Source: Endomicrobiales bacterium (lineage in GTDB: Bacteria; Elusimicrobiota; Endomicrobiia; Endomicrobiales; CAWCFT01). From it: a stretch of DNA of 64,000 nucleotides. The notes under the pieces are model-generated. The model worked only from the letters and a program-made list of their open reading frames with translations. It had not been told where the DNA came from and ran no database searches. A program made the position numbers and the translations under genes. Below are positions 2,753 to 56,730 of this stretch, piece after piece. The stretch spans positions 256,001 through 320,000 of the forward strand of contig CAWCFT010000001.1 in the NCBI GenBank assembly GCA_963794945.1, written 5' to 3'. Position 1 is the first letter of the stretch. Each line of letters starts with the position of its first letter.

Positions 2753-2824
2753 TGGGTAGTGCAGGGTTTGAACCTGCGACCCTTCGCGTGTAAGGCGAAT
2801 GCTCTGCCGCTGAGCTAACTACCC
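2753..2824 (-). tRNA. tRNA-Val(TAC), CCA not encoded
   Basis: GGGTAGT/ACTACCC acceptor stem; anticodon arm TTCGC-CTTACAC-GCGAA; T loop GGTTCAAACC. Confidence 0.95.
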
Positions 2825-11603: not shown

Positions 11604-12149
11604 TCATTGCTTGACCAACAACACCTTTAGCAGCCCAATACTTTCAACTTTAAAACCTTTTGTACTTGCCAGTCCCAAAAAATCTTCAAAATCTTTGTCG
11701 GAAACATGCCCTTTAGGTTCGCTGAAATACAATTTTGCGCCTTTTTTCATGGCCGCGTATATTTCCGTGAGCAAACGGTCTTTATCAGGAACTTCGTGGG
11801 CCACGGCGAAAAGAAGCACGAAATCGAACGTACCGTCAAGGTCATGTATATTTAGCGAACTGGCTGTACACTGGCGCGGTTGGATCCTTCCCAACAACCC
11901 CGCTTTTAAAGCTCTTCTCGAAAGGCCGGACAGCATTTTTTCCTGCAGGTCAACGCAGACGACTTTTCCCGTTTCCCCTGTCATACGCGCCAGCGGCAGG
12001 CTGAAATAGCCCATGCCGCTGCCGATATCAAGTACGTTCATGCCTTCCCTTATATAAGGCTTGAACATTTTATCCGGATCGTTCAAAAACTTCCTTAACG
12101 GGCTAACAAGCCAGTAACCCAGCCACCAGGGACAAACGCGTTCGGCCAC
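11604..12149 (-). CDS. Class I SAM-dependent methyltransferase
   Basis: VLDIGSGMG, VDLQ..ML, FDFVL, HEVPD. Confidence 0.9.
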   Translation of the reverse strand: MAERVCPWWLGYWLVSPLRKFLNDPDKMFKPYIREGMNVLDIGSGMGYFSLPLARMTGETGKVVCVDLQEKMLSGLSRRALKAGLLGRIQPRQCTASSLNIHDLDGTFDFVLLFAVAHEVPDKDRLLTEIYAAMKKGAKLYFSEPKGHVSDKDFEDFLGLASTKGFKVESIGLLKVLLVKQ

Positions 12150-12176
12150 TTGAAACTCCTTATATATATGTATGAG

Positions 12177-12806
12177 CTATGCGGCCGGTGTTTGGTTCAT
12201 GGCCCTGATATGCCTGCGGATATACCAAAACGCACAGGCTAAAATGATGATACCTATCGCGGCATCGAACTTATGAAAATATACCCTGAGCGAATCCCAA
12301 TTCTCGCCCATTTTCACTCCTATCCAGGTGAGCAGAAGGCTCCATATATATGAACCGATAAAAGTGTAAGCTATGAAAGTTGACATCTTCATTTTAGAGA
12401 CGCCTGCCGGGAAAGCTATAAAAGTCCTTATTACTGGAAGCAGCCTCGCGGCAAATACAGTGATATTGCCCCAACGAGCGAACCAGCGGTCTGCCATGTC
12501 GAGGTCGTGGTGCGATATTAGGATGTATTTCCCATATTTTACTATCCATGCCCTGCCGCCCCACGCCCCTGCGTAATAGGCTACTATGGAACCCAGCACG
12601 CAGCCTATGGCGCCCATGAGCGCGACAAACCATATATTAAAGTGACCGGTAGCGACAAGGTACCCTGAAAACGGAAGAATAACTTCAGAGGGGAGCGGTA
12701 TACACGCGCTTTCTATGGCCATCAAGAGGGCAACGCCCGCGTAACCCATTGAATTGATAACACCTATAATGAACGCCGAAAGATAACCCAGACAATGCTC
12801 TACCAT
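12177..12806 (-). CDS. DedA family membrane protein
   Basis: ESACIPLPSEVILPFSG, ARLLPVIRTFIAFPAG. Confidence 0.93.
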   Translation of the reverse strand: MVEHCLGYLSAFIIGVINSMGYAGVALLMAIESACIPLPSEVILPFSGYLVATGHFNIWFVALMGAIGCVLGSIVAYYAGAWGGRAWIVKYGKYILISHHDLDMADRWFARWGNITVFAARLLPVIRTFIAFPAGVSKMKMSTFIAYTFIGSYIWSLLLTWIGVKMGENWDSLRVYFHKFDAAIGIIILACAFWYIRRHIRAMNQTPAA

Positions 12807-12849
12807 TGAAGCTCCTTTATAGCAAATTGCAATTTTGATAAGCTTTCAT

Positions 12850-12878
12850 ATTTTAATACAACCGTCCGTATTTGTCAA
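12850..12878 (-). promoter_or_regulatory. Sigma70 promoter for dedA
   Basis: TTGACA (12878-12873), 17-nt spacer, TAAAAT (12855-12850). Confidence 0.7.
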
Positions 12879-12880
12879 AT

Positions 12881-13257
12881 GGGTCGCTCGGGATTGATTT
12901 TTAAAAAGACGGCGGGTATCGCAACCCGCCTTGACTTTGGCGGCTCCAGTAAGCAAAAGTTGCCGCCAAAACACTTTTTATAAAATCAATCCGTCGCTCC
13001 GCGGGTGAGCAAACACAAATCCTTTATCAGTCAAGGATTCGTGTCTGACTACTACACTTAAGAGACTTTCTAAATGCCCTTGGCGTAGACACCCCCGAGT
13101 TCTGACTGAAAAAGAACGCTGGGGGTGCTCACCCACCGAGCGCGGATAAAGTTTTCAAAAATGCCTCATGGCCGCGACTTTACATGCACAAGCGGCCGTG
13201 TGGAGCGGAGGAAGTGTGGAACGCCCCGTCTTTTTAAAAACTTTATCTGCGCGACCT
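12881..13257. other. Two diverged inverted copies of a ~165-nt multi-hairpin unit (candidate ncRNA or non-autonomous element)
   Basis: Copy A 12881-13046 and copy B 13087-13257 share TTTTTAAAAAGACGG, GGGTGAGCA, TT[AT]TCAGTCA and GTGTCT. Their stems differ in sequence but still pair. Confidence 0.75.
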
Positions 13258-13284
13258 CTTTTTGAAAATTATTTCGAGCGCCAT

Positions 13285-13313
13285 TTGACAAATGAAAAAT
13301 AATTTCTTATAAT
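13285..13313 (+). promoter_or_regulatory. Consensus sigma70 promoter for the hydrogenase operon
   Basis: Perfect TTGACA(13285)-17-TATAAT(13308). Confidence 0.8.
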
Positions 13314-13594
13314 CTTCAAACAATTTATTTACCTGCTCCTTAAAACACTTAAAGAGTTTGATTTTGGGTTTGCGGTCCGCAGGCTTGGCAAGGTTTACAA
13401 AACCCTGCAAGTTCGAAGGATCGGGACTTTTTTGTTTACCCGGTACCCCGCATCAATATCGCGCGGGCCATAAAAGCAAGGCACACTCAGGCAATTACAC
13501 TCCTCAGAACACGCCTTGAAACATCCGAAGACAAAATTTTAGGCAGCATTTTTAACGGACTACTTGGGCCGTTTTTATTTTTGCACATAACACT

Positions 13595-15035
13595 ATGAAC
13601 ATGAAACTTCTTATCATACTCACGATCTTCGTTCCGGTCCTTGGCGCTTTCATACTGCCTCTGGTGGGTTCAATATCTGAACGCCTCAGGAATGTTTCGG
13701 CTCTTGTCTTTGTGCTTACCTCACTTATATGTTCCTTTATAATGATACCATCAGTACTTTCCGGTCAAATAACAACCATTACACTCACACTGCCCATGGG
13801 ATTTAACTTCGTCCTCACGGCCGACATGCTGGCGGTTTTTATGGCGATAGTCTCTTCGCTCATCGGATCTATTATCGTCCTCTACTCTTTTGACTATATA
13901 AGCCACTACGAAAACCGCAACGAATACTATTTAATGGTAGTGCTCTTCCTTGGCTCCATGATGGGCATAGTTTTTTCGGCTAACCTTATATTCCTCTATT
14001 TGTTCTGGGAAATAACAGCCATAGCGTCTTGGAGGCTTATCGGTTTCTTCAGGGAAAAGAACTATGTACTCAAGGCAGATAAATCGTTCCTTGTGACCGC
14101 CTTCGGCGCGTTCATGATGCTTCTTGGTTTTATACTTGTTTACCAGCAGACAGGCTCTTTCGACCTTGCAGCCATTAAGGCCGTAATGAAGGTAAGCCCC
14201 TTGAGCAGTTTGGCCGTTGGCCTGATACTCTTCGGCATACTGTCCAAGTCCGCCACGCTTCCTTTCCACACATGGCTGCCGGACGCAGGCGTAGCGCCTT
14301 CACCCGTTACCGCCCTTCTTCACGCGGCCGTGCTTGTCAAGATAGGTGTTTACGTTTATGCGAGGCTTTTCATCTGCACTTTCTCTATTAACCCCATATG
14401 GCATAACGTCGTACCCATAATCGCCGGCTCAAGCGCGCTTGTATCAGCCGGAGCTGCGCTCATTGAAACAGAACATAAAAAGAATTATCGCTTATTCGAC
14501 TGTAAGCCAGATAGGCTTCATATTCCTCGGCCTTTCAGTTGGCGGAGAAATAGGCGTTGCAGGCGGGCTCCTATACATATTAATGCATGGCATAGCCAAA
14601 GGCGGCCTTTTCCTTTGTGCGGGCATTGTTGAACAGAAGACGCACATTAAGGATATAACCAAACTCGGCGGGCTAATATATACCATGCCGGTCACTGCCG
14701 TATCTTTCCTGTTATGCGCTTTCTCTGTTATGGGCATTCCCCCTTTCGGCGGCTTCTGGAGCAAATATATGGTAATAACAGGAGCGGTCTCCGCAAGACA
14801 GTTCACTATAGCGTCTGTTTTCATCGTGGGCGCTTTTTTAACGCTTATATATCTTTTTAGATTGTTCATGATGGTCTTCCTGGGTGAAGAAAAAGCCTCC
14901 AACCCAAGGGAAGGTTCAGTAACGATGGTTTCAAGCGTGGCCGCACTGGCGTTCATATCGCTTTTAGCCGGCGTGTTCATAAACTATATTGCCGGCCCGG
15001 TGCAGTTGACAGTGAAACAGATGTTGGGAATATAA
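13595..15035 (+). CDS. Antiporter-like subunit 1 (MrpA/MrpD, NuoL/M/N family); apparent +1 indel near 14472
   Basis: FWEIT, KSATLPFHTWLPDAGVAPSPVTALLH, KRIIAYSTVSQIG, GIPPFGGFWSK, spread over two joined ORFs. Confidence 0.88.
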
Positions 15036-29390: not shown

Positions 29391-29420
29391 AGTTTGGCAA
29401 AGCCAATGCTTTGCCAAACT
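29391..29420 (-). terminator. Perfect 13-bp hairpin immediately 3' of tmRNA
   Basis: AGTTTGGCAAAGC-CAAT-GCTTTGCCAAACT. Confidence 0.6.
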
Positions 29421-29422
29421 TA

Positions 29423-29769
29423 TGGAGGTGGCCGGAATCGAACCGGCGTCCGAAAGCGTCTAGGCCAGGTTCCTACAGGCTTAACAGGAAATTGTTCTCG
29501 CCGCTAAGCTGCCTTCCTGCAGGACCGCTTAACAGCCAGCTCCGTTATAGTTTCATCAAGCAACGACGGAACAAGCCTTGCCTGACTAACCTGCTCTTGA
29601 CGTTCGCTCCCTTTAGCAGGTGTCAAAGGGCGGACGCTTACCGCAATTAAGCGGCGAGGGCTAATGTATTATTAGCTTTTATTGTTTGACCGATTTTTAG
29701 CCGAGCCTTCGGTCAACTCGGGCCTGCCACCTGTTCCTCGTTCACTCCCGTCGAGACCTGTTCACCCCC
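29423..29769 (-). ncRNA. ssrA: tmRNA, tag peptide (A)ANNTLALAA*
   Basis: 5' GGGGGTGAACAGGTCTCGAC; 3' GCCGGTTCGATTCCGGCCACCTCCA; tag ORF GCT AAT AAT ACA TTA GCC CTC GCC GCT TAA (29676-29647). Confidence 0.95.
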
Positions 29770-30747: not shown

Positions 30748-30821
30748 TGGCTGCCCTGTCAGGATTTGAACCTGAAACGAACGCTCCAGAGGCGTTTGTG
30801 TTACCGTTACACCACAGGGCA
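30748..30821 (-). tRNA. tRNA-Gln(CTG), CCA encoded
   Basis: TGCCCTG/CAGGGCA acceptor stem; anticodon arm AACGC-CTCTGGA-GCGTT; GGTTCAAATCC. Confidence 0.95.
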
Positions 30822-56555: not shown

Positions 56556-56569
56556 CATATCCCGTTCTT

Positions 56570-56721
56570 ATCCCTGCGGTGTTGGTGAAGATTATCTGAT
56601 TTAAGCCGACAAGTTCCTTTTCGGGAGCGATAAAAGATCCGGCGGCATCGTGCCGCCAGTCTTCGCACCCACTTAATTAACTGGGACTTAAATCGATAGT
56701 CAGCACGGCACTCGCGGGGAT
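56570..56721 (+). ncRNA. ssrS: 6S RNA
   Basis: Rod fold: ATCCCTGCG pairs with CGCGGGGAT; ATTATCTGATTTAAG pairs with CTTAAATCGATAGT; central bubble; canonical position after zapA. Confidence 0.8.
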
Positions 56722-56730
56722 TTATTATAT

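Follow-up and report, generated by a model that had tools for sequence, protein, structure and literature searches.

Two diverged members of a dispersed family of structured repeats of the Elusimicrobia lie back to back upstream of a hydrogenase operon

The window analysed here is a stretch of 64,000 nucleotides from the genome of an Endomicrobiales bacterium (assembly GCA_963794945.1, contig CAWCFT010000001.1, positions 256,001 to 320,000 of the forward strand), a member of the Elusimicrobia, a phylum known almost wholly through metagenomes. A VTT/DedA-family gene and an operon specifying Mrp-type antiporter subunits, followed by group-4 [NiFe]-hydrogenase subunits and a HycI protease (first ATG at 13595), diverge from an intergenic region that holds two structured units, A (12882-13049, plus strand) and B (13085-13256, minus strand), with common modules in mirror orientation (Table 1). 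Each side has its own outward sigma-70-type promoter. On the left, the −35 box starts at a distance of 3 nt from the 5′ terminus of A; on the right, copy B and the −35 box are separated by an additional, partial 5′ arm belonging to a further copy. The mirror symmetry extends outwards into a perfect 13-nt inverted repeat (12870-12882/13281-13293, detected with a repeat finder) that contains the −35 boxes of both promoters. Since A and B are upstream of both flanking promoters, they lie outside the corresponding transcripts, and the position of B upstream of its promoter rules out a riboswitch or leader of the hydrogenase operon. The operon has a long leader, ~275 nt from the consensus promoter to the initial ATG (13314-13594), in which Rfam found nothing at E ≤ 10. 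Its first gene is apparently split into two ORFs in overlapping frames (13595-14632 and 14439-15035), which match the first and second halves, respectively, of one Proton_antipo_M domain; the cause could be a frameshift, an error in sequencing, or a programmed shift.

Table 1. Features of the A/B locus and RNA genes found elsewhere in the window
Feature	Position	Strand	Remarks
tRNA	2753-2824	-	Rfam, gathering threshold
VTT/DedA-family gene	12177-12806	-	served by the left promoter
Leftward sigma-70-type promoter	12850-12878	-	TTGACA-17-TAAAAT, 11/12; serves the VTT/DedA-family gene
Copy A, core	12882-13009	+	family 'forward' orientation; covariance model 144.7 bits; closing stem with invariant 2×2 internal loop, hairpin 2 (12911-12930), linker CTTGACTTTG, hairpin 3, tail CGTCGCTCC
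Copy A, 3′ hairpin module	13010-13049	+	genome-specific; variable stem, conserved loop TTATCAGTCA, preceded by GGGTGAGCA
Central spacer between A and B	13050-13084		35 nt
Copy B, 3′ hairpin module	13085-13127	-	loop TTTTTCAGTCA; preceded by GGGTGAGCA on the minus strand
Copy B, core	13128-13256	-	diverged subtype, hairpin-2 loop CCACAC; covariance model 91.5 bits
Extra partial 5′ arm of a further copy	13257-13280	-	CGCTCG and 5′ strand of stem
Rightward sigma-70-type promoter	13285-13313	+	TTGACA-17-TATAAT, consensus, 12/12; serves the Mrp/hydrogenase operon
tmRNA	29420-29769	-	Rfam, gathering threshold
tRNA	30751-30821	-	Rfam, gathering threshold
6S RNA	56568-56724	+	Rfam, gathering threshold

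A sequence-only reading of this region had proposed a pair of inverted ~165-nt units with fixed loops and compensatory stem changes. Alignment of A (plus strand) with the reverse complement of B bore this out, including the invariant blocks TTTTTAAAAAGACGG and GGGTGAGCA: the stems of the two copies differ in sequence with complementarity kept, the closing stems were recovered by the repeat finder (A, 12891-12907/12976-12992; B, 13140-13161/13231-13252), and the inner hairpins and the final hairpin are carried by both. The similarity of A and B is far beyond chance; a covariance model of eight copies of this genome, in whose seed both were included, gave them the scores shown in Table 1 (E 1.9e-20, whole genome). 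The length of ~165 nt holds for this genome, but the family-wide core measures only ~128 nt and the final hairpin is an added 3′ module, present in eight of the nine copies of the genome and not seen in other genera. As the sequence-only reading had held, the pair is no recent duplication: A represents the common subtype, and its core is nearer to a copy on contig C2 (88% identity) than to B, while the sole blastn match of B in its own genome is B itself (E ≤ 1e-3).

No known RNA family was found at these units. The Rfam 15 check suggested by the sequence-only reading returned no match to the elements at E ≤ 10 (positions 12000-14500) or at gathering thresholds (whole window), and none at E ≤ 1 in five related loci holding other subtypes. 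Blastn gave no match to the element in plasmids and phages, and seven pattern matches in viral contigs were unsupported by the covariance model. A pattern scan of one genome per species yielded one confirmed relative, in the metagenome-assembled genome Elusimicrobia bacterium RIFOXYA2_FULL_47_53, and a Salinivirgaceae match that the model did not support. In those parts of the literature reached by a full-text search, we found no description of such an element in Elusimicrobia, nor any of the non-coding repertoire of the phylum. Two specific candidates were discarded. The motif CTGATGAG, present in some 3′ hairpins on the outward strand, resembled a hammerhead core, but it sits in a hairpin loop and varies to CTGATAAG and CTGAAAAAG, and there was no match to an Rfam ribozyme. 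A TnpB/IscB guide RNA came into consideration through the many copies that lie directly 3′ of ORFs of 400-500 aa, but these ORFs encode unrelated housekeeping enzymes.

A and B belong, as two diverged members, to a dispersed and so far undescribed family of structured repeats in the phylum Elusimicrobia. An nhmmer profile found nine copies in their own genome (G000; E ≤ 1.5e-15) plus one weak partial match; eight of these nine were also recovered by model R1 of the 128-nt core, at 91-145 bits, and blastn with A detected homologous stretches on six other contigs (best identity, 88%). The search of related genomes with a covariance model, which the sequence-only reading had recommended, returned many further copies. 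The element was present in five of the 104 genomes of the order, G000 included, and in 12 of the 151 sampled across the phylum, all of them metagenome bins; copy counts obtained with the model are lower bounds, strict filters having been used above 40 genomes. Laxer filters gave 1, 9, 3 and 10 copies in four other families of the order. Family f19, which belongs to another class, carries the element in six of 11 sampled genomes, and blastn with one 2.4-kb locus produced 14-41 matches per genome in five of its genomes, all except 3-6 per genome falling on the 121-nt element. Core length is 121-133 nt almost throughout, the exceptions being a few copies that internal insertions extend to 140-186 nt.

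The shared core, of ~125 nt, is a three-way junction: two inner hairpins branch from a long closing stem, which is formed by an imperfect terminal inverted repeat of about 20-25 bp. RNAalifold predicted the identical three-way junction from either strand of eight copies (−45.4 and −46.7 kcal/mol), with compensatory changes in 24 of 42 and 21 of 40 pairs. The strong covariation of the stems, with loops and linkers fixed, had been read from A and B alone and held in an alignment (A7) of 92 model matches (88-89 distinct rows). Paired cells made up 87.9%, versus 64.4% after shuffling and 41.7-54.2% when partners were slid; double-sided changes occurred in 35 of 36 pairs, versus a shuffle mean of 30.0 and 17-21 with slid partners. 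The covariation score was 0.527, versus 0.159 in shuffled alignments (0/500 reached the observed value) and 0.07-0.11 with slid partners; the alignment was fitted to the model, which favours structure, and the copies are related, so that the shuffle statistics overstate independence. The slid controls and the independent RNAalifold result argue that the effect is real. Unpaired positions that are fixed include both sides of a 2×2 internal loop in the closing stem (TC/TC in forward orientation), an ACG junction, and CTCC and AAGTC at the ends of the hairpin-3 loop; the element ends, CGCTCGG and CCTCGCT, are also conserved. An outer helix, GUCGC/GCGAU, considered for the f19 subtype showed no covariation by eye and was dropped. 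Pairing is nearly all Watson-Crick, with 49 G-U and 46 A-C among ~2,950 cells (each <2%). The sequence-only reading had taken the balance of G-U and A-C pairs as weakly favouring an outward reading of each unit, but this fails family-wide: the counts were 10 versus 26 in the first 30 copies and 49 versus 46 in 88 distinct copies, which makes the measure unusable as a test of strand.

Among 91 copies whose flanking genes were called by our own ORF scans, the upstream gene was in sense in 65 and in antisense in 17, with nine copies at contig ends; 50 of the 91 lay in sense between two co-directional genes. A sense stop codon was found within 12 nt of the 5′ end of the element in 42 of 87 copies (sense ORFs of at least 60 codons); the mirror test, made at the opposite end, gave 3 of 88. 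The neighbours are unrelated housekeeping genes (those for an accC-type carboxylase, RNase E/G, phosphoglucomutase, GMP synthase and IMPDH, rnf genes and others). The operon named in the sequence-only reading was correctly labelled, but the element is not specific to that locus. In family f19, the usual layout is a stop codon, 0-3 nt, the element, and then, in most copies, a start codon 9-38 nt on, often preceded by a Shine-Dalgarno-like motif; judging by this layout, the f19 copies must be transcribed in sense within operons.

A different placement was found in the order to which the window belongs. In 11 of its 31 copies, the −35 box of an outward promoter (at least 10/12) lies 0-8 nt from the 5′ end of the element, and B is a twelfth case by way of its extra partial arm. 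The control frequencies were 0/56 in other lineages, 0/30 at the 3′ end, and 123/47,892 (0.26%) in background windows. Genes with such an abutting promoter include rplM in two families (genomes G000 and G008), those for an H+-pyrophosphatase, a ClpB-like ATPase and an isocitrate/isopropylmalate dehydrogenase, and the VTT gene and the hydrogenase operon of the present locus. As read from the sequences, both subtypes show this abutment, and the promoter is therefore not a subtype-specific extension. Four promoter-abutting copies of this genome sit between divergent genes, where there is no upstream transcription to be stopped. At another copy of the genome (locus L014, 1640-2080, on contig C2, to the right of copy c2), the abutting outward promoter TTTACA-17-TAGAAT is followed by >400 nt in which no ORF reaches 90 aa; this stretch may hold a small gene or a further non-coding RNA.

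Several traits are those of a repeat that multiplies. In family f19, copies are repeated in tandem with a ~141-nt period and some contigs break off within a copy; full copies joined to partial arms occur at B and at loci L077, L052 and L085. Genomes of the same genus differ at rnf-operon junctions: G107 carries a copy between the genes for an Rnf-Nqr membrane subunit and an RnfB-type protein, a junction that in G122 and G126 lacks the element and contains an ORF of 139 aa. The junction after the RnfB-type gene, in turn, holds a copy in G126 and an element-free spacer of 130 nt in G107. These differences are gain or loss as judged from the sequences compared. The element is small and non-coding, has terminal inverted repeats, is dispersed in many copies and shows insertion polymorphism between related genomes, the features by which MITEs are recognised. 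The flanks of 52 f19 copies were A-rich, with no consistent direct repeat that would mark a target-site duplication, and no parent insertion sequence with matching ends was found, the IS200-like element of the genome having unrelated end hairpins. We know of no autonomous parent element or transposase for this repeat family. An empty-site comparison for the A/B locus, made through relatives of the VTT protein, was abandoned, the two closest loci differing in gene order and not being empty sites; the co-directional gene upstream in these loci is what we take to be an undecaprenyl-diphosphatase-like gene. According to the covariance model, the element is absent from the 40 loci scanned out of 80 metagenome loci encoding VTT-protein relatives. 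Other observations point to retention. Sites are shared across genera or families upstream of rplM (G000 and G008) and at the L069/L087 locus (G107 and G114), which suggests that copies are retained over long periods, possibly through a host function. By eye, the f19 copies are alike across three genera, and in blastn one G107 copy matches them at ~70-96%, a closeness that looks more like purifying selection than neutral decay. The strong sense bias and the fixed −35 register, too, exceed what selfish spread alone explains.

On balance, we lean slightly towards regarding the family as a new structured repeat of the MITE/ERIC kind that acts in cis; a family of small-RNA genes seems less likely. 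The element would be a non-autonomous mobile or duplicative DNA element that multiplies, forms arrays and partial or nested copies, and preserves its capacity to form hairpins. Most copies would ride passively in the transcripts of their neighbours, usually in sense after the stop codon, and would therefore act only in cis. In the second setting, found in the window's order, the same end of the element abuts the −35 box of a strong, outward-firing promoter. The A/B locus shows this setting twice over, its two copies lying back to back where the promoters of the VTT/DedA gene and of the Mrp-[NiFe]-hydrogenase operon diverge. A copy read towards the promoter would present a GC-rich hairpin and a U-tract, stopping stray transcription ~30 nt before the −35 box, and would also bring an A+T-rich tract to positions of about −50 to −63. 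Together, A and B may then form an insulator against stray or antisense transcription, or an upstream module, and would not be small-RNA genes. These roles as terminator, insulator or upstream module are what we infer from the arrangement, and that of terminator leaves the copies between divergent genes unexplained. The tandem G-A loop of the outward strand and the stabler fold of that strand would suit a functional RNA or single-stranded DNA, which counts against a plain mobile repeat.

The sequence-only reading had offered the units as a candidate new structured element, and the structure and the lack of a known family have stood up; a reading of them as a pair of small-RNA genes is not supported. 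Such RNAs would be transcribed independently, read outwards (A from the minus strand, B from the plus strand), would end at hairpin 2 and its U-tract, and would act in trans or bind a protein. Several features of the outward strand are in keeping with this. On the minus strand of copy A, hairpin 2 followed by GTCTTTTT was flagged as resembling an intrinsic terminator, and on the plus strand of copy B a hairpin at 13202-13227 is followed by GTCTTTTT at 13228-13235, as read by eye; this terminator-like site is present in the window's subtype and absent from the f19-subtype folds. The outward strand also folds more stably, in 81 of 88 copies overall and in 28 of the 30 from the order (there by a mean of 6.8 kcal/mol); much of this is attributed, on our reading of the energy rules, to the invariant internal loop, which on that strand is a tandem G-A, and CGAG/CGAG recurs in several 3′ hairpins. 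Further, the spacer always lies on the side where an outward promoter would sit. However, no sigma-70-like promoter was detected in the 35-nt A/B centre or the inner hairpins, and a scan of 28 copies for the sigma-70-type consensus revealed none at a consistent distance on the outward strand: five were flagged, 3-182 nt from the core, and only that of locus L015 (TTGCCA-16-TATAAT, 15 nt upstream of the outward core) was both good (11/12) and close. Because of this lack of an inner promoter and of a consistently spaced outward one, the small-RNA gene pair is unsupported. In addition, the f19 copies are wedged between a stop codon and the next start codon, with no room for an antisense promoter; termination at the U-tract would drop the 3′ strand of the closing stem, yet this stem covaries; and neither strand is enriched in G-U pairs. 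Of four sequencing runs assessed for the stretch, two DNA-type ones gave short contigs only and two metatranscriptomes gave nothing, a result that has no bearing on whether it is expressed. We regard independently transcribed small RNAs as quite improbable.

It is also rather unlikely that the element works at the DNA level, as folded single-stranded DNA or a cruciform that would serve as an attC-like or REP/Y1-like site of recombination or transposition, or as the site of a structure-specific protein. The near-pure Watson-Crick pairing, with G-U and A-C equally low, is what pairing in DNA would give, and the divergent strong promoters flanking A and B could favour extrusion through negative supercoiling. 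Integron attC sites, such as the ~125-nt repeats of Vibrio cholerae, keep structure more than sequence, lie after stop codons and are uniformly oriented; the Elusimicrobia element resembles them in all these respects, in length (121-133 nt) and in the stronger fold of the non-coding strand. It differs from attC in that it forms no cassette arrays, its neighbours are core housekeeping genes and not cassettes, its copies are dispersed, and its ends (CGCTCGG and CCTCGCT) are not R-box-like, no ends of the RYYYAAC/GTTRRRY type having been seen in the sequences read. A link to Y1/HUH transposases, which the sequence-only reading had thought worth checking, was not borne out: no copy adjoins such a gene, the nearest in this genome being ~7.5 kb away, and Y1_Tnp genes occur in 5/5 element-bearing genomes of the order but also in 26/99 without the element. 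Orientation, moreover, follows transcription, and it is not set by the direction of replication, since A and B are oppositely oriented at a single locus. Chance resemblance or a simple local inverted duplication, which the adjacent, mirrored units and the perfect inverted repeat in their outer flanks might bring to mind, has a negligible probability: chance is excluded by the covariation controls, and homologues of the units exist on the six other contigs and in 11 other sampled genomes of the phylum, the C2 copy being nearer to A than B is. It is doubtful, finally, that the element is a module retained by its hosts at gene boundaries across the phylum, either as a three-way junction bound by a protein or as the substrate of a structure-specific DNA enzyme. 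In the former case, the invariant tandem G-A/U-C loop would be the protein recognition site on the junction, polycistronic mRNAs would be processed or stabilised directly after stop codons, and in one order the module would have been co-opted, at a fixed register, as the upstream module of strong promoters; in the latter, the family would represent a new kind of single-strand-based mobile element.

The preferred reading, that of a MITE/ERIC-like repeat acting in cis, can be set beside described repeats. MITEs are reported to provide promoters, terminator-like hairpins and sites for RNase III/E, and to insert into one another (PMC10969869). ERIC (RU-1; ~127 bp; PMC10969869, PMC2759123) is like our element in its ~125-bp size, its imperfect terminal inverted repeat and its long stem; ERIC and similar MITEs number in the tens to hundreds and occupy transcribed intergenic sequence and gene 3′ ends, as here, and their copy number differs between related genomes, as does that of the Elusimicrobia element. 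The likeness is one of features: the Elusimicrobia element is a three-way junction with two covarying inner hairpins, not one long hairpin. Its copies, conserved phylum-wide, are strongly biased towards the sense orientation, sit immediately 3′ of stop codons and showed no TA-type target duplication. The Correia elements of Neisseria (CREE) are similar in being small inverted repeats located just upstream of genes, with sigma-70-type promoters and hairpin transcripts (PMC10969869). The promoter is, however, inside the Correia element, whereas in the Elusimicrobia element the −35 and −10 boxes are outside the conserved unit, and the copies after stop codons have no such boxes. REP/BIME sequences with their Y1-type RAYT protein are likewise structured extragenic repeats that follow genes, often as inverted pairs, and have been proposed to act in termination, mRNA stability and supercoiling (PMC3733652 and PMC2817692). 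REPs are single palindromes of 20-40 nt with a GTAG or CGTC tag, whereas the Elusimicrobia element is branched and ~125 nt long; a tagged palindrome, hundreds of copies and a linked RAYT gene were not found for it. The SPRITE, BOX and RUP repeats of Streptococcus pneumoniae also have terminator-like hairpins, cluster, and insert into one another (PMC10969869), which may be compared with the partial and nested copies seen here; they belong to another phylum and have another architecture, and are likened to our element by description only.

Structured intergenic repeats are thus a known kind of element, present here in up to tens of copies per genome; what is new is a branched fold conserved phylum-wide and two unusually precise placements, after stop codons and at a fixed register to the −35 box. 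If the family is a mobile repeat, it would offer a tool for strain typing, would explain assembly breaks in these genomes, and would be a case of repeats that shape the promoters of core genes (those of rplM, the H+-pyrophosphatase and the hydrogenase operon). Should it belong to the host, it would represent a new kind of signal, in RNA or DNA, that acts in cis at the boundaries of genes. In neither case does it warrant annotation as a regulator dedicated to the hydrogenase operon.

Some minor observations were made on other loci. In the arrays of genome G114 (L067, 1003-1621; L086, 3-405; L082 and L084), a conserved 20-nt linker, TAAGGTGAAAGGCATTAAAG, lies between copies; several of these contigs end within copies, and the arrays may truly be longer. 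At L077 (~1170-1360, G107) and L052 (~1470-1660, G130), which look like orthologous loci in two genera, a full copy lies inside the 5′ and 3′ arms of another subtype, replacing the inner hairpins of the outer one; the enclosed copies could be nested insertions or products of recombination. Outside the window, genome G000 has three identical IS200-like copies of ~547 bp (C2:132520-132882, C8:42970-43332 and C11:110065-110427), unrelated to the repeat family. Their end hairpins have a common core, GCAGTCTTGCTGC, with CCCCGCAGTCTTGCTGCGGGG at one end and CCGCGCAGTCTTGCTGCGCGG at the other, and because their 154-aa transposase ORFs are intact, this element may be active. In genome G008, three loci (L024, L033 and L037) have a common module ~20-90 nt downstream of the core, composed of CTGCGATG, a short hairpin, and then AAACCTGAACC...GGTTCAGGTTTT, the last part of which resembles a forward-strand terminator; judging from these three sequences, the module would be genus-specific and akin to the 3′ hairpin of the window's genome.
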